A stretch of DNA of 64,000 nt from Dehalococcoidia bacterium (GCA_965201135.1 OZ241751.1:1780248-1844247), one strand, 5' to 3'. Shown: positions 689 through 59,580, numbered from the stretch's first letter. The notes: a model not told the origin generated them from the letters alone. Numbers and translations are program-made.

Positions 689-873
689 CGGCGCGCAAGC
701 GCCGAATCCGCCTCTCCTAGAAGGGGAGAGGACGCCGCGAATGCGGCGGGAGAGGGTACTGCGGACGGGGCGCAGCCCCGTCATTCCTGCGTAGGCAGGA
801 ATCCAGTCGGCGCCCCGTCTCCAAGGATCCACCGGGGCCGCGTCATTCCCGCGTAGGCGGGAACCTACCCCCA
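689..873. repeat. Palindromic repeat mosaic (modules B-C-D-E-A, type II tail)
   Basis: Contains GGCGCGCAAGCGCC, CCTCTCC-TAGAA-GGGGAGAGG, ACGCCGCGAATGCGGCG, GGAGAGGGTACTGCGGACGGGGCGC..GCCCCGTC, and GTCATTCCTGCGTAGGCAGGAAT / GTCATTCCCGCGTAGGCGGGAAC. The same modules recur throughout the window. Confidence 0.9.
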
Positions 874-937
874 TTTGCGGCGCGACCCTCGCCCCCTTGA
901 CCGTGCCCGCGAAGCCGGAACCTATCCCGCCCCGCCT

Positions 938-2170
938 TCACGGGCGGGCGGGGCGAGGGGCGGGAGCGCCGGGGCGCTTGACGAGCGTCTCGCGGGCGCC
1001 GAAGAGCAGCAGAGCCGCCGCGATCAGCAGAACGGGCGCGTAGACGAGAAACGCGAGCCCCGCGCCGTAGCCCACGGCGAGTATGCCGCCGAGCAGCGGG
1101 CCGCTGATGGCGCCCACCTCCGCGAACGTCCGCCGCGCCGCCTGCAACCGCGCCCGCGCCGCGTCCGGCACCACGTCGTAGGTGGACGTCGCCACCGACC
1201 CAAGCGACAGCCCGTTCGAGAAGCCCATTAGCGCCGCTATCGCCGCAAGCCCCGCGAAGCCGTCCGTCATCGGAATGAACAGGAACGCGACGCCGGGAAT
1301 CGCCGTGCTCGGCACCGTCGCCCACTTGCGCCCAATCTTGTCGACGACGAATCCCGCCGGGAGGATCATCACCAGCGAGCCCGCCGTCATCACGGAAAAG
1401 AGGAAGCCGATCTCTCCGGACGAAAGGCCGATCTCGTCCGCGTAGACGGGCAGCACGCCCTGATACGACATCCGGTAGAGCATCATCGCCATCGTGGCGA
1501 ACACGAGCGCGAGGTAGGTCGTCCGCAGAGAAGGGTCTATTTGCAGGAAGAGGCTCTTCAGCCGGACGAGCCAGTTCCCGCCTTGCGCCTCGGGGCGCGC
1601 CGCGCTCCGCTCCGGCGCTTGCGAGTTCGGAATGAACAGCCCTAGCGCGAAAACGGCGGCGGCGAGCGCCGTGTAGATGACGAACACGAGCCGGAAGCCG
1701 ACCTCGTCGCCGATGAGCCCGCCGGCGAGCGCGCCGATTCCCATGCCGACGGAGTTGAACCCCATAAAGCCGCTCATCAGCCTGCCGCGCTGCTCCGGCT
1801 TCACGAGATCGACGCCGGCCACCTCGCGCCCCAGCATCCACCCGCTGTCGGCGGCGCCGGCGACGAACAGCGCGGCGAGCAGCGGCCACAGCCACGGCGT
1901 CACGACGCCCGCGAACACGGCGAGCGTGATGACGACGGGGCCGAACGTCACCGCCGGGCGCGTTCCGAACTTGTCGATGAGCGCTCCGCCGAGCGGCTGC
2001 CCGACGAGGCGCCCCGCCGCGAACGCCGTCACCGTCTGCGCCGCGATCCCTCCTTCGACGCCGAACTCGCCCGCGATGAGCGGAATGACGGGGAAGAGCA
2101 TGCCGTGCCCGACGCCCATGAGGATGGTCGTCAGGTAGAGCATCGTCAGCCCGCGCGCAATCCGGCCCAT
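938..2170 (-). CDS. MFS transporter
   Basis: 410-aa ORF with about 12 hydrophobic segments. It has an MFS loop-like motif GRLVGQPLGGALIDKFGTRP. The overlapping 455-aa ORF 843..2210 is an Arg/Gly-rich shadow. Confidence 0.8.
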   Translation of the reverse strand: MGRIARGLTMLYLTTILMGVGHGMLFPVIPLIAGEFGVEGGIAAQTVTAFAAGRLVGQPLGGALIDKFGTRPAVTFGPVVITLAVFAGVVTPWLWPLLAALFVAGAADSGWMLGREVAGVDLVKPEQRGRLMSGFMGFNSVGMGIGALAGGLIGDEVGFRLVFVIYTALAAAVFALGLFIPNSQAPERSAARPEAQGGNWLVRLKSLFLQIDPSLRTTYLALVFATMAMMLYRMSYQGVLPVYADEIGLSSGEIGFLFSVMTAGSLVMILPAGFVVDKIGRKWATVPSTAIPGVAFLFIPMTDGFAGLAAIAALMGFSNGLSLGSVATSTYDVVPDAARARLQAARRTFAEVGAISGPLLGGILAVGYGAGLAFLVYAPVLLIAAALLLFGARETLVKRPGAPAPRPARP

Positions 2171-2276
2171 CGAGCCCTCCCGCTCCGCCCGCCGGAGCCG
2201 CCTGCCTCACTATACGCGCATTGCTCCCTGCGCGGGCTCACGCACAGCCTCCGAACGCCCCGCCGCGCCCAGCGCC

Positions 2277-2575
2277 GTCATTCCCGCGTAGACGAGAATC
2301 TCGCCTCCATTTGAGACGCGCAAGCACCGAATCCCTCTCTCCCTAGAAGGGGAGAGGACGCCGCGAACGCGGCGGGAGAGGGTACTGCGGTCGGGGCGCG
2401 CCGCGTTGGGGTAGGTTCCCCCTTTGCGCGTAGGCGAGGCGCTCTCCGGTAGGTTCCCGCTTTCGCGGGAATGACGATGCGCCTGAGGATACGGGGAGAC
2501 AGGGCGCGACGCGCCCCGTCCTATGGCGCTTGCGCGCCGGAATGGATTCCTGCCTACCGCAGGAATGACGGCGTA
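2277..2575. repeat. Palindromic repeat mosaic
   Basis: Modules A, B, C, D and E, plus a reverse-oriented type II unit (GGTAGGTTCCCGCTTTCGCGGGAATGAC ... GGAATGGATTCCTGCCTACCGCAGGAATGAC). Confidence 0.9.
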
Positions 2576-2774: not shown

Positions 2775-3080
2775 GGATTCCCGCCTACGCGGGAATGACG
2801 GGGCAGGGGGTAGGTTCCCGCTTTCGCGGGAATGACGCGGCGCGTTGCGCCCCGTCCGCAGTACCCTCTCCCGCCGCGTTCGCGGCGTCCTCTCCCCTTC
2901 TAGGAGACCTTTGCATAACCCCTCACTACAGAGCCGGGGCGCCCCAATTCACTCCTAGCATTAAGAGGAATTGCGGGCCGCAACTGAGTTATGCAAAGGT
3001 CTCTTATAGGGAGAGGGGGAATTCGGCGCTTGCGCGCCTCAATAGGGGCGAGGTTCCCGCTTTTGCGGGAATGACGGGCA
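2775..3080. repeat. Palindromic repeat mosaic interrupted by a MITE
   Basis: Modules A (x3), E, D, C and B in reverse orientation. Module C is split by the element at 2904..3003. Confidence 0.9.
2904..3003. mobile_element. MITE (~100 bp) carrying the terminal inverted repeats of the IS5-family element
   Basis: GAGACCTTTGCATAACC ... GGTTATGCAAAGGTCTC-type ends (here GAGTTATGCAAAGGTCTC) are identical to the ends of the IS at 32424..33629. The AT-richer ~65-bp core has no ORF. It is flanked by the two halves of repeat module C (CCTCTCCCCTTCTAG | TTATAGGGAGAGG). Confidence 0.8.
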
Positions 3081-3119
3081 GGGGGCGTCGCGCCGCACCG
3101 TGCGCCCGCATCCCGCCCG

Positions 3120-3575: not shown

Positions 3576-4367
3576 CTATCCTACGGCTGTCGCGTAGCAG
3601 GCGGGGCAAAGCGGTTTGGCGTAAGTCGTCGGGGCGGACGCGCCGCACTTGTGGCAGTGCTTTTCGCGGTAGTTGGGGTTCCTAAAGCGGCTCCACTCCG
3701 CATAGCAGCGCTCGCATAGCGGCTTGTCCGACGGAGCGTATTTGATGACCTTTCGGCAACGAACGCAGCGCCCGCGCTTCAGCAGCGTCTGCGCCCGCTT
3801 CAGCGCCCTTAGCGCCTTGCCCGGCGCCTCCGCTCTGATCCGGTCGAGCCTGTCTCGAACGGAACCGTCGCCTTGCGGCTCTCGCGGACTCTCCTCCGCG
3901 CGGGCGCGTCCGTCTTCGGTTGGCCGCTCGACGCGCTCGCCGAGTTTCGTAAGGCGAACCGCGTAGTCGCGCAGGGCCGCGTAGGCGGCGCCGCCGTTCA
4001 CCAGCATGCCGACGTCCATCGAGTTTCTGCTGGAGCGCTCCGTCAAGTTCATCGACGAAAGCAGCGCGGCGGACTCGTTGAGGTACAACTTCGCGTGGAG
4101 GTTCGGCAGCCGGTAGACCGTCGCGCCCGTTCCCATAAGCCACTCGTTGCCGTCGCCGCGCGAGTAGCCGTTGGGGTTGTAGATGGCGGTGACGCGAACT
4201 TTCCGCTCTATGGCGAACGTGATCTCGTTCTTGAGGTGCGTCCAGAACGCGTTGTAGGGCGAGACCAAGACGACGTACTTTTTCGCCTCTCTGATGAGGG
4301 CGAGCGCCGTCTGAGCGACGGCGTCGTCCGTGACCACGTGAATGCCTGATTCGTTGCTTGCGCCCAC
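3576..4367 (-). CDS. PLD/HKD-family nuclease-like protein with C-terminal double zinc ribbon
   Basis: It has a single HKD-type motif, PNLHAKLYLNESAALLSSMNLT. The C-terminal ~70 aa carries four CxxC pairs (CVRC..CERC, CHKC..CPAC). GC is somewhat lower than in neighbouring genes. Confidence 0.7.
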   Translation of the reverse strand: MGASNESGIHVVTDDAVAQTALALIREAKKYVVLVSPYNAFWTHLKNEITFAIERKVRVTAIYNPNGYSRGDGNEWLMGTGATVYRLPNLHAKLYLNESAALLSSMNLTERSSRNSMDVGMLVNGGAAYAALRDYAVRLTKLGERVERPTEDGRARAEESPREPQGDGSVRDRLDRIRAEAPGKALRALKRAQTLLKRGRCVRCRKVIKYAPSDKPLCERCYAEWSRFRNPNYREKHCHKCGASAPTTYAKPLCPACYATAVG

Positions 4368-4509
4368 CGGCTTGCGCCTCGCCTTGCTCCGGGCGGCGAT
4401 TATAGCCTACGCCCGCTGGCCGACGCGAGGAGGATCCCGCGCGGATTACCGCTTGCGTCGGAGTCCGCGCTCCATGGGAACGGCTCGCCGCCCTCCGCCC
4501 TCCTTGCGC

Positions 4510-5943
4510 CTACGACCCCAACTTCGCGTCCGCAAACGCGGCGGCGTAGAGGCGCGCCTCCTCCTCCGTCGCGCCGCCATTGATCTGCGACGTGTACGCT
4601 TCCTCGTAGGCCGCCGCGTAAGTCGCCGCCTCCTGATCCTCGCGCCCCGCGAGTTTCGCGTCGGCGTAGGACGAGGCGTAGATGTGCGCCCGGTCCTCCG
4701 ACCAGCCGGCGAGGACTTTCTGGTTGAAATAGATGCGATAATAATCCCAGGCGTAAGAGTCATGCGCGTCCTCTGCTAGCCCCTTTTCAGTGGCATAGTG
4801 GACGCCTCTGAAGTACGAATCGGCATTAAGGTATGCAGATTGATCAGAAAATCCAAGATCCACTTTCCCTAAGGCAAATATCCTAGCGTATTCATACGCA
4901 GCATACCCAGGGTTGTCCCAGCCCCTGCTCTCGGCTCTACTTAGCCCTCGGCCATAGGCATCGGCGTAGGCCGCCGCCCAGACGTAAATCTGGTGTTCCT
5001 CGGTGTAGCCTTGCTCAGGCTCCGCCCTCCAAACTGCCTCTTCGTAGCCTCTCCGGTACGCTACTCCGTAATTGATCCGCTGCAGAACGTTCTTAGAACG
5101 CGACCTCTCATAGCCGCGCACAGACGCATCGGCAAGGTTGGCCGCTTCTTCTTCCATGTTCCCACTGTAAATATATCCTGCATAGACCGAAGCGTAGACG
5201 TGAGCAGTTATTCCTGTCGCATCCGTTTGCGCGAAGGCGACCGCATAGGTTTCCTCGAACGATGCTTCGGTGGAGTCATTTTCGGATGAGAACGGCCACC
5301 AGCCGTTGCGCCGCGCCGCCTCGCTTGCGCGCCCCAGCGCATCCGCCAGCGGCAAAGGCGAATCGCCGACCACCGCCTCTGCGAAGGCTGCGGTGTAGTC
5401 CGCAAGAGCGGCTTTGTCGTCCTCTTCGGTGAAACCATTGCGGGCAGCGACAGCCGAATGGTAGACGACGCCGCTGGCATAGGCGCGAGCGTCGGCGTTG
5501 CCCAGCCTCAACGCTTTCGCATCCGCAAACGCGCCAGCGTAAGTCTCCGCGTCGCCATCCTCCAATCCTTCCGCGCCGGCATAGCCGAGCCCGGCGGTGT
5601 ACTCGGGAGGGCGTGGCGTAGGCGTGGGCGTCGCCGCAGGAGTCGGCGTTGCGGTGGGACGCGGCGTCGCAGTTGGGGTCGGCGTTGGCCGCGGCCGAGG
5701 AGTTGCGGTCGGGCGAGGCGTTGGGGTCGCGGTGGGAGACGGCGTTGCGGTTGGCGTCGCCGTTGGTCGCGGCGTCAAGGTAGGCGTTGCCGTCGGCTGC
5801 GGCGTAGGCGTGGGAGTGGGTTCCGCCGTTGGCGTGGGCGGCGGCGTAGCCGTCGGTTCGGGCGTAGGCGTAGGCGAGGCGCACCCCGCGACGATGATGA
5901 GCAGAACGGACAGACCGACGACGGCAAACGCTTTGCAAGCCAT
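4510..5943 (-). CDS. Lipoprotein with Pro/Thr-rich linker and Tyr/Ala-rich helical-repeat domain
   Basis: Start set at ATG 5943, with AGGAGG 5 nt upstream. [21 protein letters not shown] is a signal peptide plus lipobox. It is followed by a ~100-aa PT linker and then a ~330-aa domain with recurring ..YA..Y..A.. periodicity. The 3' two-thirds is visibly lower in GC. Confidence 0.75.
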
Positions 5944-5976
5944 AGAACCCTCCTGTGACACGGAGCGAAGGTGCTT

Positions 5977-6088
5977 GCAACATGTCTTCAGCCCGACGTG
6001 GCTCGACAGGAGGGCGCACGGCCCTCCGTCCGCGATAACCGAGCCACAAGCGTGCGCACGGGGCGCAGCAAGGCCTCAGACATGTTGC
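5977..6088. other. ~112-nt nested inverted-repeat (multi-stem) element in the divergent intergenic region
   Basis: Perfect 11-bp closing stem GCAACATGTCT (5977..5987) / AGACATGTTGC (6078..6088). Inner stems are GTGGCTCG (5998..6005) / CGAGCCAC (6040..6047), GGAGGGC/GCCCTCC and TGCGC/GCGCA. Confidence 0.5.
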
Positions 6089-6130
6089 GGAGCGTACTCT
6101 AGCAGGCGGGGCGGGGGATGGCAAGGGGGG

Positions 6131-6160
6131 TTGACAGGGAATGGCCAGATCAGGTAAGGT
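6131..6160 (+). promoter_or_regulatory. Sigma70-like promoter candidate for the HEPN-motif gene
   Basis: TTGACA (6131..6136), an 18-nt spacer, then TAAGGT (6155..6160). AGGAGG and the ATG at 6181 follow. Confidence 0.4.
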
Positions 6161-6180
6161 GATGGTAGGAGGCTTGGACG

Positions 6181-7089
6181 ATGCTGATCCGTGCGGAGTA
6201 CGTTGTCCGGTTGTCTACACCGATATACATCTGCCCCGACTTGGAGGGACCTGTCCCTTCGATAAAGTTCGACCGCCAGGGCTTCGCCGTTGAGATTAAC
6301 AGGTGGGGCTTCACAAGCCATCAGCCTATTCCTGACGGCGGCTTCGACCCTGGGGAAATGTCCGCTGTCAGCGTGAGGATAACAGGGGACGAACCTGGGG
6401 GGTTGACAATCAAGGCTTTGCCAAGCGACATCCAGGAGAAGTACGAGGGGGTGTTGATTGCCAGCCTCATGGAATTCGTGAATTGGGTTCGCATAAGAAC
6501 GCAACAAACGCACCTGAACAATCGGTTCCCTGTGCGGGAGTATGACGTTGTATTTTTCTCTGAAGAGGGAATTATATCTCAACAGCAAACCGTCAAAAAT
6601 CCTAGGCGCGGCGCTTTCTCGATGCACCCAGATAACTTCGTTGGTTCATTAGGGTCATGCGAATGGCAAGACATAGGCGAGTCGCTTCGCCAAGGCGGAC
6701 CGCCGCATAGCGTGGACACCTTGGTATATCAGGCCAAGGCTTTGCTCAGTGAAGGGTTCAATGGCCCTGCGCTGATCATTGCGGTCACTGCTCTTGAATA
6801 CTATTGCTGGAACGCGATTCCTGAAGATAAGCGATTCCGTAACACACATAAGGGGAAATCGCCGAAAGGGGTTAAAGAGTTATTTAAAACGCTAGTGGAG
6901 ATGATTGGCAAGGACGCCATGCTCCCCATCGACGGTAAGCTTATTGGGCAAATCATAGAACGCCGTAATGCCGTAACACATGGAAGGGAAGACGAATCCA
7001 CCCGGTCAGATATAAACTACATTATCCGCGCCATACGCGCAATTCGGAGGGAACGTTCCGGCGGTAAGCGTTCGGTGAAGCAGTCCTAG
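6181..7089 (+). CDS. Hypothetical protein with C-terminal HEPN-type (Rx4H) motif
   Basis: 302 aa, roughly 50% GC against about 70% surroundings. The C-terminal LIGQIIERRNAVTHGRE contains R-N-x3-H, the HEPN RNase signature, and is preceded by helical segments. The N-terminal ~170 aa is unrecognised. Confidence 0.7.
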   Translation: MLIRAEYVVRLSTPIYICPDLEGPVPSIKFDRQGFAVEINRWGFTSHQPIPDGGFDPGEMSAVSVRITGDEPGGLTIKALPSDIQEKYEGVLIASLMEFVNWVRIRTQQTHLNNRFPVREYDVVFFSEEGIISQQQTVKNPRRGAFSMHPDNFVGSLGSCEWQDIGESLRQGGPPHSVDTLVYQAKALLSEGFNGPALIIAVTALEYYCWNAIPEDKRFRNTHKGKSPKGVKELFKTLVEMIGKDAMLPIDGKLIGQIIERRNAVTHGREDESTRSDINYIIRAIRAIRRERSGGKRSVKQS

Positions 7090-7158
7090 TAACAGGGTGC
7101 TTTCGGTGCTTGCGCGCCGCTGGGTTCCTGCCTACGCGGGAATGACGGTAGAGAGCCC

Positions 7159-8334
7159 CTACCGGGCGACGCCTTGCGCGGTTCGGTCGTCGCCTTGCGC
7201 GGCGAGGCGGGCGGCGGCGGACGCGATGAGGCTGCCCATCGCCGTCTCCGACCAGAACCAGCGCTGGCGGTCTTCCTCGCTTTCGTTGGGGCGCCGGCAG
7301 AGGCGCGCCTCCATAAAGAACGCCTTGAGGTCGTCGCAGGCGAGGCGGAGAAAGCGGGCGGACGGCGTTCCTTCGGGCGCGTCGGGATACGGCGCGTCGT
7401 CTCCGGCGGCGAACGCCTGCATCCACCGGACGAGACCGCGAAACCGGCGCTGGGGCGTTCCGCTGAGGCCGACCATCGTGCGGCCCTTCTCCGCGACCCA
7501 GCGCTCGTAGTAGCCGCGCAGCGCGGTGACCTCGCCGGCGGGGTCGCCGTCGCGGTTGGCGGCGTCCGCTTGCGCCACGCTCGCCTGCAGGAGGACGGGA
7601 GGCGCGTCGGCGTCCTCCGGGAACTCGGCGAGCGCGGGGACGGCCTGCGCCTGCAGCAGCCCGAGCGCGGCGGCGAGAACCTTATGCTGAAAGGCGGGGG
7701 CGTCCGGCTTGCCGAGCGCGAAACCGAAGGGGAACGGCGCCCAAAGCGCGCGGGGCGGCTTCACGCGCTGCGCGTGCTCCTTGACGAGCGCGATTGCGAC
7801 GGTGGGCAAGCCCGTCTCCTCTATGGCTCGCGCCAGCACACTGACCGTGTGCGTGCAGTTCGGTCAGGTGGGCGTGAGCAGCGCGGCGTCCGCGCCCTCC
7901 TCCAGCAGGAGGCGGCCGACCTCCGGCCCCGTCTCGCTTTCGATGCGGCGGGGGCTGCGCTGCGCGCCCATAAACGAATAACAGCGCTCCGCGAGCGAGC
8001 CGACCTCTCCGCGCTCGACGAGTTCCCGCATGCGGTCTATCGGAAACGTGACGTTCACGTCGCGCATAATGCCGGTGCGGTCGAACCCGATGCTCATATG
8101 GCTCTGGATGAGGTCGGCGGCTTGGGCGCCGGACGGAATGACGCGGTAGGACTCGTCGCCGGACGAGAAGGGAGCGTCGCCGCGCAAGTGCAGCCCGGCG
8201 GTGGTGACCAGCGCGACTTTGGCCTCGGCGAGCGGCTTCGAGAACGGCGCGAACGGGGCGTCGTCGTGGTCGAACGCGGGAAAGTTCAGCATCGCCTGCC
8301 GGGCTGCGTCGGGCAGATCTTCCAATCGCGGCAT
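7159..8334 (-). CDS. GRDB-family (glycine/sarcosine/betaine/D-proline reductase component B-like) protein with in-frame TGA, candidate selenoprotein
   Basis: Track ORFs 7864..8505 and 7159..7839 share one frame and are separated only by TGA at 7864..7866. The junction reads ..EEGADAALLTPT-U-PNCTHTVSVLARAIEETGLPTVAIALVKEH.., a UxxC motif. Start set at ATG 8334, with GGAG upstream. Confidence 0.7.
7836..7852 (-). promoter_or_regulatory. SECIS-like hairpin 3' of the in-frame UGA
   Basis: The mRNA reads GCACAC-GGUCA-GUGUGC, a perfect 6-bp stem with a GGUCA loop. The stem starts 12 nt after the UGA codon. Confidence 0.4.
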
Positions 8335-13868: not shown

Positions 13869-13936
13869 TGGCTTCTCCGTTGCGGGCGTCAATAACCCCA
13901 AGCATACCCTACTGCCGTTGCCAGCGCCCTCTTGCC

Positions 13937-14188
13937 GTGATTCCCGCATAGGCGGGAATCACGTCCCATTTAAAGGCGCGCAAGCGCCTGCATCCCCCTC
14001 TCCCTAGAAGGGGAGAGGGCGCCGCGAACGTGGCGGGAGAGGGTACTGCGGACAGGGCGCAATGCGCCCCGTCATTCCCGCGAAAGCGGGAATCCCGCCC
14101 CCACTTGAGGCGCCCCAGCGCCGCAGACGGGGCGCAGCCCCGTCTCCATAGAATCCCCGGCGCATCGTCATTCCCGCGAAAGCGGGAA
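13937..14188. repeat. Palindromic repeat mosaic
   Basis: Modules A-B-C-D-E-A followed by a type II unit. The terminal GTCATTCCCGCGAAAGCGGGAA hairpin abuts the IS30 insertion. Confidence 0.9.
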
Positions 14189-15178
14189 TGTGGATCCACA
14201 TTCGAAGCGCAACACCTGCTGTTCGTTCCAGAATACCTCAACCGGCGTCCGGTAGCCCAGCGCCGCGCGCGGCGTGTTGTTGGAGCGCAACGCGCACAGC
14301 GTCAACTCCTCGTCCGACACCCCGTCCAAGTCCGTCTTCCGAGGCAACTCCCGCCGCAGCCGGCCTATCGCGTTCTCCACTCCCCCTTTCTGCCATGGCG
14401 ACCTCACGTCGCAGAAGAACGTCTCCGTCCCTATCGCGTGCAACTCGTAATGCCGCGCAAACTCCGTCCCGTTGTCGAACGTCACGCTCCGCCGCATCTC
14501 CAACGGCAGAGCCCCCAGCGTCGCCACCATCGCTTGCGCGACAGGCTCCGCCCCCTTGCTCTCAGGCCGCAACACGAGCGACAGCCGCGACGCGCGCTCG
14601 TGCAGGATCAGCAGCGCCTGCTTCCGAACGCCGAACAGCATCGTGTCCGCCTCCCAGTGGCCGAACTCGACCCGGCCGGCGGCCTCCGGAGGCCGCTCCG
14701 CCAGCGGGCGGCGCTCACGGATGAACACGGCGGAACTGCGCCCCTTGCGGGAGCGCCGGCCCCTCTTCGCCTTCGCCTGCGGCAGGTAATGCCGCCAGCC
14801 GTAGTCCTTCTTCCTCTTCACCTGGCCGTAGATGAACCGGTAGATCGTCTCGTCCGAAATCACCGGCCTGCCCATCTCCAACGCCAAGCGCCCGGCCACT
14901 TGCTCAGGCGACGCGCCCCACGCGAGCCGCCAAAGCACGGCCTCCCGCAGCAAGTCGTCGCGGTCGAGGCGCGGCCCGCGCCACCGCCGCGCCTGCGCCC
15001 GCTCGTTCGCCTGCACCGGCCTGTACTCGCCTGAGCTCAACCGGTTGCGGTTGATCTCGCGAGAGATTGCCGATGGCGAGCGATCCAGACTTGCAGCGAT
15101 TTGCCTGACCGCGGTCCCCGCTTTGAGTAGGCGGGCAATCTCACACCGCTCTTCGATCCCGATATGGCTGTATCCCAT
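14168..15178 (-). CDS. IS30-family DDE transposase
   Basis: 336 aa. It has an N-terminal HTH (ERCEIARLLKAGTAVRQIAASLDRSPSAISREI) and DDE-region motifs HWEADT, FDNGTEF and QKGGVEN. The ORF reads through the IS end and terminates 21 nt into flanking repeat DNA. Confidence 0.9.
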   Translation of the reverse strand: MGYSHIGIEERCEIARLLKAGTAVRQIAASLDRSPSAISREINRNRLSSGEYRPVQANERAQARRWRGPRLDRDDLLREAVLWRLAWGASPEQVAGRLALEMGRPVISDETIYRFIYGQVKRKKDYGWRHYLPQAKAKRGRRSRKGRSSAVFIRERRPLAERPPEAAGRVEFGHWEADTMLFGVRKQALLILHERASRLSLVLRPESKGAEPVAQAMVATLGALPLEMRRSVTFDNGTEFARHYELHAIGTETFFCDVRSPWQKGGVENAIGRLRRELPRKTDLDGVSDEELTLCALRSNNTPRAALGYRTPVEVFWNEQQVLRFECGSTFPLSRE

Positions 15179-15222: not shown

Positions 15223-15321
15223 GAACCTACCCCGCTCGCCGCCGGATACGTTGTTCCCGCGAAAGCGGGAACGACTGCAAGGGACGGCAGGGCGGCAAAG
15301 GGCGCTGCGCCGTAGGGGGTT

Positions 15322-18925: not shown

Positions 18926-18950
18926 AGGCGCTCCTCATGGCTGCCCCATC

Positions 18951-19378: not shown

Positions 19379-19432
19379 AGAAGGGGAGAGAACGCGGCGG
19401 GAGAAGGCGCTGCGGACAAGAGCGAAGAGGTT

Positions 19433-20245: not shown

Positions 20246-20412
20246 CGCCTTCAAGCCTCTGCGCGCCCCATGCCGCCTCCCCGCCCATGCCGCCTCTCGT
20301 GCCCCCCTTGCCTCCTGCCCGCCCCAGGCCCCTGCGCGCCCCTTGTCCCGTCATTCCGGCGTAGGCCGGAATCCAGAGGCGCGCGAGCGCCGAATTCCCC
20401 TCTCCCCTTATA

Positions 20413-36695: not shown

Positions 36696-36742
36696 ATAGA
36701 CCTTCGCCCACCCTCAACAAGCCTCGCCAGCCGCCCGCCCAT

Positions 36743-37150: not shown

Positions 37151-37174
37151 TCGCCCCACCCCCATCGTGCTACG

Positions 37175-39521: not shown

Positions 39522-39637
39522 CGCGGCGGCGCGCCTGCCCGCGCCCCCGAATCGCGTATCCTACCGCCGATGTCCCGCAACGAAGCCGACACCAGAGCGC
39601 AACTCATCGCTAGGCCGGCAGGGCGAATGATGGAATA

Positions 39638-42301
39638 ATGATGCTGCTACGACATACCCCCCCCCCGAATTTTCGCCGGGGTTCCGCTATGAGAGCGCTC
39701 GCGCCGCACTGGGGCGCGCTGCTTGGGCTTGCGCTGTTTCTTATCGCGGGGCTCGCCGTTCTCGACGACTACGGCGCTCACTGGGATGAGTTCGTTCACC
39801 GGCAAACCGCCGAGGCGAGTCTGCGTTATCTCACGGACGGCGACTTCGGCGCTTTCACAAGCGGGCTCTATGTAGACCATGAGAAGTTCTACGGTATGGC
39901 GTTCGAGGCGCCTCTTCCGCTGATCGAGCGCGCGTTCGGCATAGACGACGCCCCGCGCGCAGTCCATATAAGCCGGCATTTGCACTCTCGCCTGCTCTTT
40001 CTCGCAGGCGGACTCTTCGCCTACCTGCTGGCCCTCCGGCTGTCCGGCAGCCGGTTGCTTGCCCTTGCGGCGATGCTGCTGTTTCTGCTGCATCCGCGCC
40101 TCTACGCGCATTCGTTCTTCAACAGCAAAGACATTCCGTTCCTCGTGATGTTCGTCATCGCGCTCTATCTGACGCATCGGGCGTTCAGAAGGGACAAGGT
40201 TTCCGCGTTCGTTCTGCTGGGCGTTGGGGTTGGGCTGCTGGTGAATCTCCGCATTATGGGCGTCGTTCTGCTTGCGGCGGTTCCCGCGCTGCGAGCGCTG
40301 GACTTCGCGCTGGCGTCGGGCTGGGCGGAGCGCAAGCGCATTCTTCTTACGACCGGGGGATTCGCGTTTGCCGGCGCGCTAACCGTCTACGCGTTGCTGC
40401 CGTATCTATGGGGCGACCCGATCGGGCGCGCGGCGGAGTGGTGGACGACGCTCTCCAATCATCCCAACGTCGTCTCGGAACTGTTTCGCGGAACATTGTA
40501 TCACAGCGACGGCTTCCCCGTCGAGTATTTGCCGGTCTGGTTCTCCATCACGAGTCCGCCGTTCGCGCTGCTGCTGGGAGCCGTCGGGGCCGCAAGCGTC
40601 CTCGTCCATGCGGCTCGGGCTCCGCGCAACGCGCTGCGGAGCGGAAGGCTGCGGTTCGCGCTGCTGCTCGTCGCCTGCTTCGCGCTGCCTGTCTTGGCGG
40701 TGATGCTGCCCGGCGGCAACATCTACAACGGCTGGCGGCAGACGTACTTTCTGTGGGCGCCGTTCGCGCTGCTATCCGCGTTGGGGCTCCGGTGGATGGC
40801 TAGCGCGCTCGGCGGAAGGGCGCGAATAGCGGTCTACGGGGCGGCTGGCGCGGGATTCGCGGCGACGGTCATTTCGATGGCGTTGATCCATCCGAACCAG
40901 CAGACCTATTTCACTTTCTTCGTGGACAGGGTTGCGCCGGATCATCTGCGCTCGCAATACTCGATGGCCTATTGGGATCATACGATCCGGCAGGGACTCG
41001 AATGGGTTGTCATGCGTTCGGCGCAATCTTCGGACGGGCCGCGCCTGGGAACGGCGAACCGCTCATCCTGGGTTGTCGAGAATGCGCTGGTTCTGCCGGA
41101 GTCCGCGCGTGAACGCTTGGCCAACGCGGCTCCGTTCACTACCGCTCCGGGACGACCCGCTATGTCGTGGGCGCGCTCCGCCCGCGAATTGCATCGGGTG
41201 GAAGTCTACGGGAACACGCTGTGGACCGTTGAGTCGCAGGACAACCTCCGCAGCGTCTACGAATCTGTCCACGGGCGGGAGCCTGCGGTTGACGGCGCGT
41301 TCGACGTCCATCGCATTGACGGGGCGCTGGCGCTCGTGATGGAGCCGTGCGCTCCGGCGTTCGTGGAGAGGCGGGGATGGTTGACCGCGCGCGCGTTTCC
41401 CGTCGATCCCGCCGACCTGCCGCCCTGGCGGCGCGGCGAGACGTTCGAGCCGCGCAGTTTTTGGCTGGCGGACTACGGGGCGCACTTCGACGGCAAGTGC
41501 GTCGCGTCGCTCCCTCTTCCGGCGTACCCCGTCGCCGATTTCGAGTTGCGCTGGCCGCAGCCGGAACTGCTGGACGCCGGCGAGGCGCGGGAGAAAGCGC
41601 GGCGGGCGAGAGAGCAAGGGCGTCTGCTGGCGAGCGCCGAGTATGACGTTTACCTGGCGGACGGCGAGTTGGTCTACGTCAACGATGCGTGCGATCCGCT
41701 CGATACGGAGCAGCCGTTCGAACTGATCGCGCACCCGGAGCGGGCGGAGGACTTGCCGGAGGCCCTGCGGAGACAGGGCTACGAGTGGTTCGGACTCTAT
41801 TTCCACAAGTACGGCGCGTTCGTGGACGGCGGATGCGTCGCGTTCTTCCCCTTGCCGGACTACCCCATCGCGTCCATTCGGACGGGGCAATCCATAGAGG
41901 GCGGCGGGGAGTGGAGAGCAGGGTTCGCGTTGAACGCCGAACCCTACCGCTTGGCGTATGATGCCGCCGTATCCGGCGAGCCGCTGGCGCAGGGCGCGTT
42001 CGACGTCTACCTATCGGACGGGGCGTTGGTCTACGTCAAAGAGCCGTGCGCGCAGTCGGATACGGACGCCAAGTTCTTCTTGCATATCAGGCCGGAGCAA
42101 GTCGCCGATTTGCCTGAGGAGCGGAGAGAGAGCGGGTTCGACAACTTGGACTTCGATTTCTTTCCGAACGGGGCGCTGTTCGATGGACGATGCGCGGCGC
42201 GGGTTCCTCTGCCGGAGTACGTCGTCGCGTCCATACGGACGGGGCAGTACGTAGGCGGCGTTGGGGAGATATGGAGCGCGGAGTTCGCGGTCGGGAGGTG
42301 A
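39638..42301 (+). CDS. GT-C-fold (ArnT/PMT-like) membrane glycosyltransferase with triple C-terminal repeat domain
   Basis: 887 aa. The N-terminal ~450 aa is polytopic, with the early loop AVLDDYGAHWDEFVHR as in GT-C enzymes. The C-terminal ~400 aa holds three ~100-aa repeats (..FDVYL.DG.LVYVKEPC...DT.A.FFLHI.PE...DLPEERR.SGFDNLDFDFFP.GALF.G.C.A..PLP.Y..ASIRTGQ..). Confidence 0.7.
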   Translation: MMLLRHTPPPNFRRGSAMRALAPHWGALLGLALFLIAGLAVLDDYGAHWDEFVHRQTAEASLRYLTDGDFGAFTSGLYVDHEKFYGMAFEAPLPLIERAFGIDDAPRAVHISRHLHSRLLFLAGGLFAYLLALRLSGSRLLALAAMLLFLLHPRLYAHSFFNSKDIPFLVMFVIALYLTHRAFRRDKVSAFVLLGVGVGLLVNLRIMGVVLLAAVPALRALDFALASGWAERKRILLTTGGFAFAGALTVYALLPYLWGDPIGRAAEWWTTLSNHPNVVSELFRGTLYHSDGFPVEYLPVWFSITSPPFALLLGAVGAASVLVHAARAPRNALRSGRLRFALLLVACFALPVLAVMLPGGNIYNGWRQTYFLWAPFALLSALGLRWMASALGGRARIAVYGAAGAGFAATVISMALIHPNQQTYFTFFVDRVAPDHLRSQYSMAYWDHTIRQGLEWVVMRSAQSSDGPRLGTANRSSWVVENALVLPESARERLANAAPFTTAPGRPAMSWARSARELHRVEVYGNTLWTVESQDNLRSVYESVHGREPAVDGAFDVHRIDGALALVMEPCAPAFVERRGWLTARAFPVDPADLPPWRRGETFEPRSFWLADYGAHFDGKCVASLPLPAYPVADFELRWPQPELLDAGEAREKARRAREQGRLLASAEYDVYLADGELVYVNDACDPLDTEQPFELIAHPERAEDLPEALRRQGYEWFGLYFHKYGAFVDGGCVAFFPLPDYPIASIRTGQSIEGGGEWRAGFALNAEPYRLAYDAAVSGEPLAQGAFDVYLSDGALVYVKEPCAQSDTDAKFFLHIRPEQVADLPEERRESGFDNLDFDFFPNGALFDGRCAARVPLPEYVVASIRTGQYVGGVGEIWSAEFAVGR

Positions 42302-42446
42302 GGCGCTGGGGGAAGGCGGGATACGAGATTCCGCCTTCGCGGGAATGACGGCAGGTCAATGCGAGGTCTCTGTCGGGAGAGGGAATGCGGCGCTTGCGCC
42401 GGCGCATAAAGGGCGCGGCCCAGCCGCCCGCGCCGGGCGAGACCGC

Positions 42447-43412: not shown

Positions 43413-43535
43413 AGAGCGTATCGTAGGGGATTGAGGGCGCCGCCGCCTAGCGGCGGCGCGGGCGAGGGGGCGGGATTCCCGCCTACGCGGGAACGACGGT
43501 TGTGGGGCGTGGACGGGGCGCGGTCAGGCGATAGG

Positions 43536-51559: not shown

Positions 51560-51663
51560 GGAGGGGCGGGCGCCGCGAACGCGGCGGGAGAGGGTACTGC
51601 GGACGGGGCACGTCGCGCTCCGTCCCCCATCCCCAGGCGCCGCATCATTCCCGCTCGTCAGCC

Positions 51664-52245
51664 CTACCCCAGCAGTCCATTGTGCGGTTCGCGGAGACAG
51701 AGATACGCCCGGTAGTGCTCCTGCCATAGGCTGAAGTCGTTTATCACCGACTCGATTTGAATGGCGTTGCCGCCGTAGCATTCCACGAAAATGTACCACG
51801 CAAGCGGGGTCCTTCCGTCGCTGATGTAGGTGTACAGACGGCCGCCGCGCTCCTCCAGCCTGTAGTGGCGCTGCCCTTCGAACCACGCGGGAGTAGGCGT
51901 AAGCGTCGGCGTCGGCGTGAACGTAGGAGTAGGCGTAAGCGTCGGCGTCGGCGTGTTCGTGGGAACCGGCGTCGGCGTAGGCTGAGGAGTCCACGTGGGC
52001 GCGGGCGTAGGCGTAGGCGTCCACGTGGGAACCGGCGTCCACGTGGGGACGGGAGTCCAAGTCGGCTGCGGGGTGGGCGTCGGGGCGGGAGTGGCCGTCG
52101 GGACGGGGGTCGCCGTGGGGACGGGAGTCCAAGTCGGCTGCGAGGTGGGCGTCGGGGCGGAGGTGGCCGTCGGCGCCGGAGCCTGGGCCGTGGTGCACGC
52201 GGCCAGCAGGATAGTCACCGCTCCCGCGACGGCGATCATCTTCAT
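51664..52245 (-). CDS. Lipoprotein with Pro/Thr-rich linker
   Basis: Start at ATG 52245 after [24 protein letters not shown] is a signal peptide plus lipobox. It is followed by a ~90-aa (PT/TP)n linker and an ~80-aa C-terminal globular domain. Confidence 0.7.
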
Positions 52246-52646
52246 GACATCCTCCCCTTCAGCGCTTGTCTGAGCGGAGCCGCCAGCCGTACAGCGCGAG
52301 GTTAGGATACACCAGGCGGTCGGAGGGCGTTGGGCGGGAGTAGGTTGCCGCTTTCCCCGCGGGAATGACGGACATGGGCGCGGGCAGGGCGGTAGGCGCG
52401 CCGTCGCGAAGCCTGCCCCGAACGCTCCCAGTCGGCGCGGGCGACCTCCATGAGGATGAAGTTGCGGCTGCCAACGGCGGACTGGCCTCGCTTCGCGGAA
52501 GCCGCAGGCGGCGAAGCAGCGGCGCGCGCGGACGTTTAGGAATGCCGATGTCCCAACCGGAGACATAGGTAACGCTAGCCCGGATACATGGGGTAACGCC
52601 CTGACGGGGGATTATACGCAGGGCGTAGCCCATCCCAGGGCGCCGC

Positions 52647-52875
52647 GTCATTCCCGCGCCATTCCCGTCATCCCGCGCCCTCTACCGTCATTCCCGCGTA
52701 GGCGGGAACCCCGCCCCATTGGAGGCGCGCAAGCGCCGCATCCCCCTCTCCCTATAAGGGGAGAGGACGCCGCGAACGCGGCGGGAGAGGGTACTGCGGA
52801 CGGGGCGCAATCGCGCCCCGTCTCCTTATACCGCAAGTGCCTCGTCATTCCCGCATAGGCGGGAACATACCCCCT
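52647..52875. repeat. Palindromic repeat mosaic
   Basis: Modules A-B-C (CCCTCTCCCTATAAGGGGAGAGG)-D-E-A. Confidence 0.9.
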
Positions 52876-52950
52876 ACCCCTTGTCCCCTCTCCCGCCAAA
52901 TGCCCCCACCCCCAGTTGACCCCGCGCCCCGGCGCGCCTACACTCCCACT

Positions 52951-56305: not shown

Positions 56306-56482
56306 GCGGCATCCTGTCTGCCCGCCGCAGGTATTGTGGAGACGAGACTGGCGCCCGACGGGATTCCCGCCTGCGCGGGCAGGGAGGACCAAGGCGGTTC
56401 CGCAAGGGCGGCAAGGAGGCGGCGAAAGCGAGCGGCGCGGGGGCGGTATACTCGTTGGGCCGGCAGGGAGAATAATGGAATA

Positions 56483-59182
56483 ATGACGCTGCTACGACAT
56501 ATTCACCCCACGCAAATTTCGCAGAGTTCCGTTAGGAAGGCGCTCGCCCCGCATTGGGGGGCGCTGCTCGCGCTTGCGCTGTTCTTGATCGCGGGGCTCG
56601 CCGTTCTCGACGACTACGGCGCTCACAGGGATGAGTCCGCGCAGCGCACAAACGCCGATGTGAATCTGCGTTACCTTGCGGACGGCGACTTCGGCGCTTT
56701 CACAAGCGGTCTCTATGTGGACCATGACAAGTTCTACGGGATGGCGTTTGAGGCGCCTCTTCTGCTGACTGAGCGCGCGTTCGGCATAGACGACGACCCC
56801 CGCGCAGTCAATCTGAGCCGGCATTTGCACTCCCGTCTGCTCTTTCTCGCCGGGGGGCTCTTCGCTTATCTGCTGGCGCTCCGGCTGTTCGGCAGTCGGT
56901 TGCTTGCGCTCTTCGCAATGGGGTTCTTTCTGCTGCATCCGCGTCTCTACGGGCACTCGTTCTTCAACGCCAAAGACATTCCGTTTCTCGTGATGTTCGT
57001 CATCGCGCTCTTCCTAGCGCATCGAGCGTTCAGAAGGGACGGCATAGCCGCGTTCGCGCTCCTTGGCGCGGCTGTTGGTATGCTGATCAACCTCCGCGTA
57101 ATGGGCGTCGTTCTGCTGGCGGCGGTTCCGTCGCTGCGGGCGCTCGACCTCGCGCTAGCGTCAGGTTGGGCGGAGCGCAAGCTCATTCTGCTAACGTCCG
57201 GAGCGTTCGCGCTTGCGGCGGCGCTGACCGTCTACGCGCTGCTGCCGTATCTGTGGGGCGATCCGATCGGGCGCGCGGCGGAGTGGTGGTCGACGCTCTC
57301 CAATCATCCCAACGTCGTCTCGGAACTGTTTCGCGGAACGTTTTATATCAGCGATGATTTCCCCGTCGAGTATTTGCCGGTCTGGTTCTCGATCTCGAGT
57401 CCTCCGTTCGCGCTGCTGCTAGGCGCCGTCGGGGCCGCAAGCGTCCTCGTCCGCGCGGCCCAGGCTCCGCGCAAGGCGCTGCGGAACGGAAGGCTGCGGT
57501 TCGCGCTGCTGCTCGTCGGTTGCTTCGCGCTGCCCGTCTTGACGGTGATGCTGCCCGGCGGCAACATCTACAACGGGTGGCGGCAGATGTACTTCCTGTG
57601 GGCGCCGTTCGCGCTGCTCGCCGTATTCGGGCTCCATAGGCTGGCGGGCGCGCTCGGCGGGAGGGCGCGAATGGCGGTCTACGGGGCGGCGGGCGCGGGG
57701 TTCGCGGCGACGGTCATTTCGATGGCGCTCATCCATCCGAACGAGGACTTCTATTTCAACCTTCTGGCGGACAGGGTTGCGCCGGATCATCTGCGTTCGC
57801 AATACCCGATGGCCTATTGGGATCATACGATCCGGCAGGGACTCGAATGGGTTGTCATGCGTTCGGCGCAATCTTCGGGCGGGCCGTCCGCGGCGACGGC
57901 GAATCCCCGCCCTAACTGGGTTGTCGAGAATGCGCTGGTTCTGCCGGAGTCCGCGCGCGAGCGCTTGGCCAACGCCGCTCCGTTCCGCATCGCTCGCGGC
58001 GTTCCATCTCTGTCCTGGTCGCGCTCCGCCCGCGAATTGCATCGAGTGGAAGTCTACGGGAACGCGCTGATGATCGTTGAATCGCGGGACGACCTCCGCA
58101 GCGTCTACGAGGCCGTTCGCGGGCGGAAGCCGCTGGTGGACGGCGCGTTCGACATCCACCGCATTGACGGGGCGCTGGCGCTCGTGAAGGAGCCGTGCGC
58201 TCCGGCGGTCGTGGAAAGGCGGGGATGGTTCACCGTGAACGCGTTCCCCGACGACCCCGGCGACCTGCCGGCCTGGCGGGAAGGCGAGGCGGACGAGCCC
58301 CGCCTCTTCCCTCTGCTGGACTATGGAGCGTATTTCGACGGCAAGTGCGTCGCGTCGATTCCCCTTCCGGCGTACCCCGTCGCCGGCGTCGTCATTGTCC
58401 AAACAGGGCAGCGCGATGGAGAGGAAGGCGATTTGTGGCGCGCGGAGTTCTTGCTGGAGCCTGCGCGGCGATGGTCGGAGGCGATGGACGGAGCGTCGGG
58501 AGAGCCCCTCGCGCATGGGGCGTTTGACGTCCTATTGGCGGAGGGCGCGCTGGTGTACGCTAAGGAGCCGTGCGCGCCGTCGGACACGGATGCTCGGTTC
58601 TTCTTGCACGTCGTTCCGGAGAGCGCGAATGATCTGCCGGAGGCGCGGAGGGGGAGCGGGTTCGCCAACTTGGATTTCGATTTCTTCCCGACCGGGGCGC
58701 TGTTCGAGGGGAAGTGCGCGGCGCGGGCGGCGCTGCCGGACTATCCCATCGCGTCCGCGCGGACGGGGCAGTCCGCGGAGGGCGGCGTGGAGTTGTGGCG
58801 GGCGGAGTTCGCCTTGAACGCCGAACCCTACCGCTTGGCGTATGAGGCCGCCGTATCCGGCGAGCCGCTGGCCCGGGGCGCGTTCGACGTCTACTTGGCG
58901 GACAGGGCGCTCGTGTACGCGAAGGAGCCGTGTGAGCAGGGGGACGCGCAGGCGCGGTTCTTTCTGCATATCGTCCCCGAACGGGTGGGTGATTTGCCTG
59001 AGGAGCGTCGGGGGAGCGGGTTCGACAATTTAGATTTCTATTTCTTCTCGAACGGCGCGCTGTTCGAGGGGAGTTGCGCGGCGCGTGTTCCGCTGCCGGA
59101 CTACGCCGTCGCGTTCATTCGGACGGGGCAGTACGCGGGCGAAGGCGAGATATGGAGCGCGGAGTTCGAAGTTGGGAGGTAG
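56483..59182 (+). CDS. GT-C-fold membrane glycosyltransferase, paralog of 39638..42301
   Basis: Start at ATG 56483 (MTLLRHIHP..ALAPHWGALLALALFLIAGLAVLDDYGAHRDE..). It is collinear with the first copy, including three C-terminal ~100-aa repeats. About 45 nt of 5' leader is also conserved. Confidence 0.7.
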   Translation: MTLLRHIHPTQISQSSVRKALAPHWGALLALALFLIAGLAVLDDYGAHRDESAQRTNADVNLRYLADGDFGAFTSGLYVDHDKFYGMAFEAPLLLTERAFGIDDDPRAVNLSRHLHSRLLFLAGGLFAYLLALRLFGSRLLALFAMGFFLLHPRLYGHSFFNAKDIPFLVMFVIALFLAHRAFRRDGIAAFALLGAAVGMLINLRVMGVVLLAAVPSLRALDLALASGWAERKLILLTSGAFALAAALTVYALLPYLWGDPIGRAAEWWSTLSNHPNVVSELFRGTFYISDDFPVEYLPVWFSISSPPFALLLGAVGAASVLVRAAQAPRKALRNGRLRFALLLVGCFALPVLTVMLPGGNIYNGWRQMYFLWAPFALLAVFGLHRLAGALGGRARMAVYGAAGAGFAATVISMALIHPNEDFYFNLLADRVAPDHLRSQYPMAYWDHTIRQGLEWVVMRSAQSSGGPSAATANPRPNWVVENALVLPESARERLANAAPFRIARGVPSLSWSRSARELHRVEVYGNALMIVESRDDLRSVYEAVRGRKPLVDGAFDIHRIDGALALVKEPCAPAVVERRGWFTVNAFPDDPGDLPAWREGEADEPRLFPLLDYGAYFDGKCVASIPLPAYPVAGVVIVQTGQRDGEEGDLWRAEFLLEPARRWSEAMDGASGEPLAHGAFDVLLAEGALVYAKEPCAPSDTDARFFLHVVPESANDLPEARRGSGFANLDFDFFPTGALFEGKCAARAALPDYPIASARTGQSAEGGVELWRAEFALNAEPYRLAYEAAVSGEPLARGAFDVYLADRALVYAKEPCEQGDAQARFFLHIVPERVGDLPEERRGSGFDNLDFYFFSNGALFEGSCAARVPLPDYAVAFIRTGQYAGEGEIWSAEFEVGR

Positions 59183-59240
59183 AGCGGCGGCGCGACCAGC
59201 AAGTTCCGCGTTGGTGGAAGGCCATTCGCCCGCACCCCCC

Positions 59241-59284
59241 CGCCAACAAAAGGCGGGCCCCGGGGACGAATCCGTCGGGGCCCG
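59241..59284 (-). terminator. Candidate intrinsic terminator (minus strand)
   Basis: 9-bp GC stem CGGGCCCCG / CGGGGCCCG (59254..59262 and 59276..59284), followed on the minus strand by CCTTTTGTTGG. Confidence 0.4.
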
Positions 59285-59413
59285 GTTGGCCCGCTCCCGT
59301 GGCGCGTCGAGAGGGGCCGACGGAGGGGAGACATCCGGAAGCGCGGACGAAGCCGCGCCCTCCGGGAGTCATGCGTCGTGATCGCCGTCTCCGGCAATCC
59401 GTCCACAGCGCAG

Positions 59414-59580
59414 TAGGAGACGGGCTTGCGCCCGTCTTGCGGGGCGTCCTGCGGGGCGTTATTCCCGCCTACGCGGGAATAACGGCAAGGCGTGGGAATG
59501 ACGTGGCCGGCTGGGATATAGGAGACGGGCGCTGCGTCCGTCTTGCGGGCGGGATTCCCGCCTACGCGGGAATGACGGCA
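59414..59580. repeat. Palindromic repeat units (reverse type II-like, two copies)
   Basis: GGAGACGGGC..GCCCGTCTTGCGGG....ATTCCCGCCTACGCGGGAATAAC and a second copy ending GATTCCCGCCTACGCGGGAATGAC. Confidence 0.8.

Follow-up and report, generated by a model that had tools for sequence, protein, structure and literature searches.

Intergenic repeat arrays of a Dehalococcoidia bacterium are built around a hairpin resembling the target site of Ssn nucleases

Introduction

A stretch of 64,000 nucleotides from the genome of a Dehalococcoidia bacterium (GCA_965201135.1, OZ241751.1:1780248-1844247), referred to here as the window, carries a family of GC-rich palindromic repeats in its intergenic regions. 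We propose that one of these repeats, module A, is this lineage's form of the NTS/SRM hairpin, the recognition site of the small GIY-YIG nuclease Ssn, and that the remaining modules, B to E, are spacers between A hairpins in arrays resembling the NIMEs of Neisseria; from sequence comparison we regard this as probable. Module A has the sequence of the published motif, is strongly enriched, has a defined orientation and shows compensatory change in its stem; the modules are joined in a fixed architecture, ssn genes flanked by hairpins are present in the same lineage, and orthologous intergenic regions are polymorphic between strains.

The biology of Ssn and NTS is known only in Neisseria, and the system was described in 2025 (PMC11893778). 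In that description the repeat dRS3 has the form ATTCCC-N8-GGGAAT, and about half of its copies constitute a longer oriented element, the NTS (CGTCATTCCCGCGMAVGCGGGAATCYRG). SsnA, a single-domain GIY-YIG protein of 94 aa, binds the NTS hairpin and cuts upstream of it, on single-stranded DNA only and without action on RNA (PMC11893778). Ssn-related motifs (SRMs), given by the expression HGTCWYN(0-2)YYVSBRHN(0-5)WNVSBRGN(0-2)RNCYNB, flank ssn homologues in many bacteria, and the SRM-rich genera include Rickettsia; the Ssn family is found mainly in Pseudomonadati, with enzymes characterised only from Neisseria and Wolbachia (PMC11893778). The NIMEs consist of 20-bp dRS3 repeats flanking RS families of about 50-150 bp, and form dynamic arrays that vary between strains and also carry insertion sequence (IS) insertions (PMC1797815).

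Results

The repeats form two composite units of fixed order

An original prediction, made from the sequence alone, described a mosaic family of REP/BIME-like palindromic modules in this window, and the presence of GC-rich palindromic intergenic repeats is confirmed. With at most two mismatches to GTCATTCCNGCNNNNGCNGGAA (full form, CGTCATTCC[C/G/T]GCG-NANG-CG[G/C/A]GGAA[T/C]C), module A gives 50 strand matches, or about 40 sites, compared with 0.05 expected from dinucleotide shuffles; by the same control module B is present 20 times (1.0 expected) and the 33-mer of module D 15 times (0 expected). All of the example loci that had been named were recovered as self-similar intervals by BLAST of the window against itself together with reading of the sequence, and units are read on either strand, as had been claimed. 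The repeats sum to 4,026 bp, or 6.3% of the window, in agreement with the earlier estimate of about 4 kb (~6%), but the statement that they fill almost every intergenic gap was too strong: repeats are present in 18 of the 29 gaps of at least 100 bp, as delimited by our own crude codon-usage gene map.

The modules had also been described as occurring in variable order, whereas we find the order to be fixed as A-B-C-D-E, or the reverse on the opposite strand. Two composite units are present, type 1 being A-B-C-D-E (~132-150 bp) and type 2 being A-B'-E'-A (~137 bp), and the mosaic appearance stems from concatenation, truncation, inversion and IS insertion of these units (Table 1). Hairpins within an array are in direct orientation (e.g. 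18960/19112/19244 and 36747-37121), and the spacing between direct-oriented A hairpins is 37-240 bp. The recurring peptides IPAYAGMT, SFPRKRE and PSPAAFAASSPLL, noted previously among translated open reading frames (ORFs), result directly from translating modules A and D/C.

We rejected the interpretation of these loci as CRISPR arrays, the 'spacers' being themselves repeated and the spacing irregular. An assembly artefact was likewise rejected, the same units being present in independent assemblies that include the circular long-read genome of a relative. Alone between two of the repeat clusters is a 41-aa ORF on the minus strand (2609-2734), which has a GTG start, AGGAGG about 8 nt upstream and no Pfam match.

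Table 1. Positions, strand and composition of the repeat loci of the window.
Coordinates	Strand	Composition
690-884	+	Cluster B-C-D-E, then A at 780 (T-variant, GTAG loop) and A at 842
2277-2575	.	Degenerate A(+) at 2277, C, D(+); then inverted type-2: A(-) 2454, E, B, A(-) 2548
2775-3087	-	Reverse type-1: A 2778, A 2815, E, D, split C, B, A 3054
2904-3003		100-bp IS5-derived miniature element in the module C loop of the 2775-3087 unit
7102-7153	-	B-like hairpin and A at 7125 (covarying stem pair mismatched, C/A)
13924-14189	+	Palindromic A variant 13937, B-C-D-E, A 14071, B', A 14167: type-1 joined to type-2-like
15250-15275	.	Lone near-perfect palindromic A variant, GTCGTTCCCGC-TTTC-GCGGGAACAAC
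18950-19399	+	Three tandem type-1 units (A G-variant and B-C-D-E); tandem array 19039-19344, period 132, 98% matches (Tandem Repeats Finder)
19361-19376		Degenerate IS5 end closing the 18950-19399 array
20338-22003	.	Degenerate, internally rearranged IS5 copy, IS ends 20413 and 21930
20350-20412 and 21931-21991		Inverted A-B-C-arm on either side of the degenerate IS5
26105-26499	.	Type-1 (A 26128) and type-2 (A 26282 to A 26372), then opposite-strand A 26463
27407-27511	-	Reverse type-1: D-C-B-A (G-variant)
29897-30009	-	Reverse type-2-like: B, A 29928 (GCAA loop), E', B
32328-33707	.	Reverse type-1: A 32335, E, D; module C loop split by IS5
33630-33690		Remainder of the IS5-split unit: C arm, B, degenerate A
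34944-35178	.	Reverse type-2 (A 34953, B, A 35037), reverse D/C and degenerate A(+) 35154
36725-37157	+	Type-1 (A 36747), then two tandem type-2 (A 36897/36984, 37034/37121); tandem array 36889-37150, period 137, 97% matches (Tandem Repeats Finder)
37865-38171	+	Repeat cluster in frame in the PNP_UDP_1 (HpnG-like) ORF 37489-38538
within 37865-38171	+	A-B-C-D unit between IS5 terminal repeats 37887 and 38040; A 38140 after
42328-42349	-	Lone degenerate hairpin A
43466-43509	-	Lone hairpin A, GTCGTTCC variant
51568-51654	+	Fragment with modules D and E, then truncated A head ATCATTCCCGC
52647-52880	+	Truncated A heads, type-1 (A 52687, B-C-D-E), A 52844
59416-59588	-	Two E'-plus-A units: A 59458 (palindromic), A 59555

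Module A corresponds to the Ssn-related motif

With C at its variable position, hairpin A reads ATTCCC-N8-GGGAAT and is identical in form to the Neisseria dRS3 repeat. Exact dRS3 matches are present at nine sites in the window, and the other copies of hairpin A deviate either at the covarying position described below (ATTCCG/ATTCCT) or at the last base (GGGAAC). The SRM expression gives 29 matches in the window compared with a mean of 0.74 +/- 1.0 (maximum 4) in 50 dinucleotide shuffles, an enrichment of about 39-fold, and 28 of the 29 are copies of module A. The similarity includes both the hairpin core and its oriented flanks, CGTCATTCCCGCG-loop-CGCGGGAA-C, and the positions reported to be critical (PMC11893778) are the flanks that are conserved here, namely the bases upstream of the palindrome and the C after it. 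CGTC upstream of the palindrome is preserved in at least 38 of 40 hairpin A copies and the C directly after it in 35 of 40, and the 3' flank takes two forms, AATCC and AACCTAC.

There are also differences from the neisserial system. The host here is a 69% GC member of the Dehalococcoidia (Chloroflexota), the hairpin has three compensated stem variants (C-G, G-C and T-A) as well as the two 3' flank forms, and the strict Neisseria NTS is matched by few copies, each with one mismatch. The hairpin density is very high, with 0.44 per kb in the window and 0.6, 1.5 and 0.5 per kb respectively in three related loci (L001, L197 and L122; related loci are designated by L numbers throughout), and extrapolation from these densities would give more than 1,000 hairpin copies per genome. 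The contig that holds the window is 2.94 Mb long.

The arrays share several features with NIMEs. Inverted repeats of 20 bp with the form ATTCCC-N8-GGGAAT bound repeat families of tens to ~150 bp, here as A-B-C-D-E-A and A-B'-E'-A units that are either single or in tandem; unit number differs between strains, IS insertions are present, and the adjoining gene neighbourhoods appear to be recombinationally fluid. They differ from NIMEs in phylum and base composition, in having spacers (B-C-D-E and the type-2 core) that are chains of perfect GC hairpins, in the presence of only two main unit types in the window (Neisseria has over 100 RS families), and in having no DNA uptake sequences or known competence context. 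A neisserial origin or a sharing of RS families is not borne out, given the Dehalococcoidia host and the different spacer sequences, and these arrays are NIME-like in architecture only and are not NIMEs. The core element thus belongs to a family described in 2025 and the array architecture to one described in 2000. No Rfam family was matched. The match to the Ssn-related motif in the literature leaves the existence of the repeats unaffected but removes most of the novelty that had been envisaged, an outcome that the original prediction had itself allowed for.

Stem pairing is preserved in hairpin A

Among 36 aligned, mutually distinct hairpin A sequences, 93.8% of the cells of the 8-bp stem are paired. 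Covariation is seen at one pair out of eight, which is C-G in 26 copies, G-C in six and T-A in three, with a mismatch in the remaining one; the covariation score is 0.126 compared with 0.045 in shuffles, none of 500 shuffles scored as high, and the signal is lost when the pairing partners are slid. The proposed covariation of the stem therefore stands insofar as pairing is kept by compensatory change at a level above that of shuffles, but it is confined to this single pair. Since the G and T variants form sub-families, the number of underlying events is probably small. Folded with DNA parameters, whole units give chains of hairpins, with z = -4.5 and -5.4 relative to shuffled controls.

An alternative explanation for such stable hairpins is that they act at the RNA level, with hairpin chains in read-through transcripts acting as stabilisers of 3' ends, as attenuators of transcription or as processing sites, and that the repeats are maintained for this reason. 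Escherichia coli REPs stabilise upstream mRNA, and the GNRA-like loops (GAAA, GCAA) of the hairpins and the compensatory change that keeps the stem paired are consistent with a comparable role, as is a mild co-direction with genes: 21 of 28 copies in co-directional gaps point the same way as the flanking genes, although this corresponds to only about 10 of 15 independent loci. However, no hairpin is followed by a T run, and we rejected intrinsic terminators on this ground; a terminator scan of the window gave six sites where 9.5 were expected, none of them within a repeat. No Rfam family was matched, either at gathering thresholds or at E <= 1, and copies are present in both orientations relative to genes and within coding sequence. 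The conserved CGTC and C flanks are determinants of cutting and binding by Ssn on single-stranded DNA, and SsnA is inactive on RNA (PMC11893778). An RNA-level function would leave both the asymmetry of these conserved flanks and the linkage to ssn unexplained, and we consider it unlikely.

The repeats are REP-like in a broad sense

The original prediction placed these repeats with the REP/BIME elements of enterobacteria, which would be mobilised by a RAYT (an IS200/IS605-like Y1 transposase) encoded elsewhere in the genome. There is a general resemblance to the REP/BIME elements and RAYTs of enterobacteria and pseudomonads: abundant imperfect GC-rich palindromes form intergenic mosaic clusters at many loci, the repeats act as IS targets, a cognate small nuclease gene lies between its own repeats (ssn in relatives of the window, described below), and GTAG adjoins the GC stem in 25 of 40 hairpin A copies. 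The arrangement NTS-ssnA-NTS has itself been likened to REP-RAYT (PMC11893778). The GTAG that had been taken as a sign of enterobacterial REPs does not, however, head the palindrome at its 5' end but forms the hairpin loop, where the other 15 copies have GAAA, GCAA or ATAG; the conserved head is CGTCAT, there is no 5' GT[AG]G head, and successive hairpins are in direct orientation rather than alternating as in BIMEs. Moreover, the hairpin-flanked gene in relatives encodes a GIY-YIG nuclease and not an HUH/Y1 transposase. No match to E. coli RayT was obtained at E <= 10 by tblastn or phmmer (six-frame ORFs) in 767 kb comprising the window and related loci, a search in which distant RAYTs would be poorly detectable, and no Y1_Tnp Pfam match is present in the gene tables of the related contigs examined; for the window itself, these E. 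coli RayT searches agree with the prediction that it contains no RAYT gene. The earlier description thus holds for intergenic, mosaic hairpin repeats broadly of the REP/BIME kind with preserved pairing, but not for the specific link to REP-RAYT, and mobilisation by a RAYT appears highly improbable.

Related genomes carry ssn homologues between hairpin arrays

The gene for formate-tetrahydrofolate ligase in the window was found exactly on a 297-kb metagenome contig in ENA (L001; 97-98% nucleotide identity), and close homologues of the ligase are encoded on complete chromosomes of Dehalococcoidia metagenome-assembled genomes (MAGs). We searched for ssn with tblastn and with a profile built from 137 homologues. 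In the relative OZ251500.1 (L137) there are two copies of a gene for a 103-aa single-domain GIY-YIG protein between hairpin arrays (Pfam GIY-YIG, E = 1.8e-16), assigned as an ssn homologue through Pfam and residue spacing. The residues mutated in the 94-aa SsnA, Y6, Y17 and E64, correspond by hand count to Y15, Y26 and E73 of the 103-aa homologue with identical spacing, and the homologue has a nine-residue N-terminal extension relative to SsnA.

The same association is seen in other relatives. Copies of ssn with the hairpin motif on both sides are present in L190-L193, and in L197 and L198 there are six hairpins pointing one way upstream of ssn and two to five pointing the opposite way downstream. 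Module D and the G-variant hairpin are present in L197 and L198 as well, together with type-1 and type-2 units that share 80-87% identity with their counterparts in the window; the JGI sample that yielded L197 also yielded L194, a contig with 97% identity to the window. No copy of module D is present in 558 kb of scanned contigs plus L122, almost all of this sequence being from two related Dehalococcoidia genomes, and an exact scan with a 29-mer of module D found none among the matches listed for representative genomes and 0 loci in JGI metagenomes; we take module D to be lineage-specific on these comparisons. We conclude that this Dehalococcoidia lineage has an Ssn homologue, as judged from the sequence of the gene and its setting, and it is likely that the genome from which the window derives encodes one too.

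The hairpin is also found more widely. The 28-mer CGTCATTCCCGCGAAAGCGGGAACCTAC is present exactly, many times, in the relatives OZ251500.1 and OY282355.1, with a few matches in Devosia, Halieaceae and Magnetococcales (this cross-phylum comparison draws on L125, L162, L173 and L176, besides IMG/VR contigs), and a Rhodocyclaceae protein shares 74% identity with the Dehalococcoidia Ssn. IMG/VR contigs with the hairpin number more than 120, and in six of them (L036, L079, L003, L109, L110 and L112) it flanks ssn homologues. The Rhodocyclaceae identity, the cross-phylum identity of the 28-mer and the IMG/VR occurrences together suggest that the cassette of ssn and hairpins has spread horizontally.

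An IS5-family element targets the loop of module C

An intact 1.2-kb IS5-family element (32424-33629; NCBIfam transpos_IS5_4, 316 bits) encodes a transposase of 366 aa (ORF 32365/32458-33465) with DDE_Tnp_1 and DUF772 domains; the insertion site of the element is the TA-rich module C loop (CCCTCTCCC-TAGAA-GGGGAGAGG). Derivatives are located at 20413-21930, 2904-3003, 37887-38040 and 19361-19376, and the IS5 ends adjoin the CTCTCC arm of module C in 8 of 8 instances in the window and in 61 of 75 in related loci. We rejected the explanation that the module C arms are merely the terminal repeat of IS5, as the D-side and B-side halves continue normally around both the IS and the 100-bp element. 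An interpretation of the units as miniature inverted-repeat transposable elements is likewise not borne out: the hairpin A copies at the ends of type-1 and type-2 units are direct rather than inverted repeats, and IS5 terminal repeats are confined to two elements, the one of 100 bp at 2904-3003 and the one at 37887-38040.

IS1397 and ISKpn1 reportedly insert in the loops of REP palindromic units, as is said to follow from the work of Bachellier, Wilde, Clement and co-workers. The behaviour of the IS described here is similar in its specificity for the loop of a hairpin that recurs between genes, and different in that it belongs to the IS5 and not the IS3 family, and in that its target is a spacer hairpin and not the hairpin recognised by the enzyme.

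The regularity of these insertions raises the question of whether the repeats are landing pads or att-like sites for mobile elements, such as IS5 here and IS110-type recombinases and filamentous phages in Neisseria, with the arrays arising as by-products of insertion and excision. The consistent position of the IS5 ends favours this, the miniature element with IS5 terminal inverted repeats at 37887-38040 bears a whole A-B-C-D unit as its cargo, and filamentous prophages of Neisseria integrate at dRS3 (PMC11893778, PMC1797815). The target of the IS is, however, module C and not the conserved hairpin A; the units far outnumber the IS copies, and most module C loops are intact. Neither the conservation of hairpin A across phyla nor its linkage to ssn would be explained, and we judge an origin of the arrays in landing pads to be very unlikely.

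Repeat units vary between strains and enter a coding sequence

A repeat cluster of about 300 bp lies in frame within a PNP_UDP_1 (HpnG-like) gene on the plus strand (Table 1). Homologues of this protein from the same clade are 274-375 aa in length and contain at this position between one and three segments encoded by repeats (SFPRRRESS..., VIPAKAGT...), whereas distant PNP_UDP_1 homologues of 225-245 aa are without the insert; the length of the repeat-encoded insert among homologues ranges from 0 to ~140 aa, and the flanking protein is highly conserved. There is in addition a second variable insert, acidic and arginine-rich, near the N-terminus of the protein (~37560-37690). Rickettsia palindromic elements (RPEs) reportedly insert in frame in protein genes and are retained as an extra peptide, as Ogata and co-workers are said to have described in 2000. 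The insert described here is comparable to an RPE in being in frame within a protein-coding gene and of variable length among relatives, but there is only one coding insertion in the window and the sequences are apparently unrelated.

Presence/absence polymorphism is also seen in orthologous intergenic gaps. In a stretch with the same gene order in both contigs, L194 is longer than L001 by about 72 bases, which include a hairpin A that L001 lacks. Over longer distances the synteny between the window and L001 downstream of the ligase gene stops exactly after the hairpin A at 26372 (26398) and CCTACTGGA. Comparison with L001, L194, L196 and L200 identifies shared blocks of one to a few genes (933-2223, 22060-26402, 30285-32373, 37080-39546 and 60493-62753) with ~96-98% nucleotide identity, the match to L200 being ~89% across a repeat-bearing stretch, and the neighbours of the shared blocks are different in all five contigs, including the window. 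Repeats are present in the majority of the gaps in the window, so that breakpoints coinciding with them carry little weight in isolation, and metagenome assemblies have to be treated with caution; the scrambled neighbourhoods may reflect real genome fluidity or be in part an effect of assembly.

Other features of the window

The window also holds two large paralogues with a PMT_2 glycosyltransferase-like domain, at 39638-42301 (887 aa) and 56336-59182 (~948 aa), whose nucleotide sequences show 86% identity over 1.9 kb; the 3' end of the second contains an internal duplication (58520-58778 and 58880-59138). The region from 4000 to 8000 has a G+C content of 0.63 compared with ~0.69. At 4510-5961 it contains ORFs that match nothing in Pfam, and at 6181-7089 an ORF of 302 aa with weak HEPN-type matches; the region may represent a defence-related island or acquired DNA. 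Tandem repeats of 18, 30 and 36 bp at 51895-52181, unrelated to the hairpin family, overlap the candidate ORFs 51664-52566 (-) and 51995-52273 (+).

Discussion

We favour an explanation in which hairpin A is the target of an Ssn nuclease and defines the ends of the repeat units. By analogy with the neisserial enzyme, Ssn, a single-domain GIY-YIG protein of ~100 aa, would bind the folded hairpin A and cut a few bases upstream of it on single-stranded DNA, and modules B, C, D and E together with the type-2 core would be hairpin-rich spacer families lying between successive A hairpins. The arrays would lengthen and shorten through duplication and recombination between A hairpins, since they contain near-identical tandem units. 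Units would also reach new sites, coding sequence included, probably via single-stranded DNA intermediates and with the involvement of the ssn-hairpin cassette, itself similar in appearance to a small mobile element. By the same analogy with Neisseria, single-stranded DNA bearing the hairpin may be cleaved whether it is incoming or arises from recombination, and the repeats may be recombination hotspots that reshuffle gene neighbourhoods.

Several considerations weigh against this explanation. We know of no GIY-YIG nuclease that carries out strand transfer, which bears on the dispersal step in particular. Modules B to E could have roles of their own, either at the RNA level or as binding sites. 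We found no ssn in the 64-kb window, nor in 65 kb of the ~97%-identical contigs L001, L194 and L196, by tblastn or with the profile, and the link between the window's genome and ssn would run through the shared lineage-specific repeats and the shared sample. It has further been reported that 19% of genomes with more than 200 SRMs have no ssn homologue (PMC11893778), so the hairpins can persist without the enzyme.

A bolder extension is that the hairpin-bounded units are non-autonomous mobile elements that are spread through single-stranded DNA intermediates by Ssn, forming a counterpart of REP-RAYT that is mechanistically independent of it and active enough to account for in-frame entry into coding sequence, the landing of IS5 and the reshuffling of gene order among strains of ~97% identity. 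We regard this as speculative, with a modest chance of being correct.

The novelty lies in the host: a Dehalococcoidia lineage in which hairpins are very dense, the spacer families are its own, one of these families is the target of an IS, and coding sequence has received insertions. It is uncultured, GC-rich and far from the Pseudomonadati, and if the density in the window were to hold genome-wide, which is an extrapolation, the lineage would be among those with the densest hairpin loads so far. There are practical consequences for MAGs of this kind, as the repeats give rise to spurious ORFs and peptide 'families' (SFPRKRE, IPAYAGMT) that complicate annotation, and they also break short-read assemblies. 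The ssn cassettes within inverted hairpin arrays and the three compensated stem variants constitute a natural data set, and open the questions of how the specificity of Ssn co-evolves with its site and of whether the repeats spread as a selfish element. Through in-frame inserts, a loop-targeting IS and scrambled neighbourhoods, the repeats are tied to genome plasticity in an environmental bacterium.

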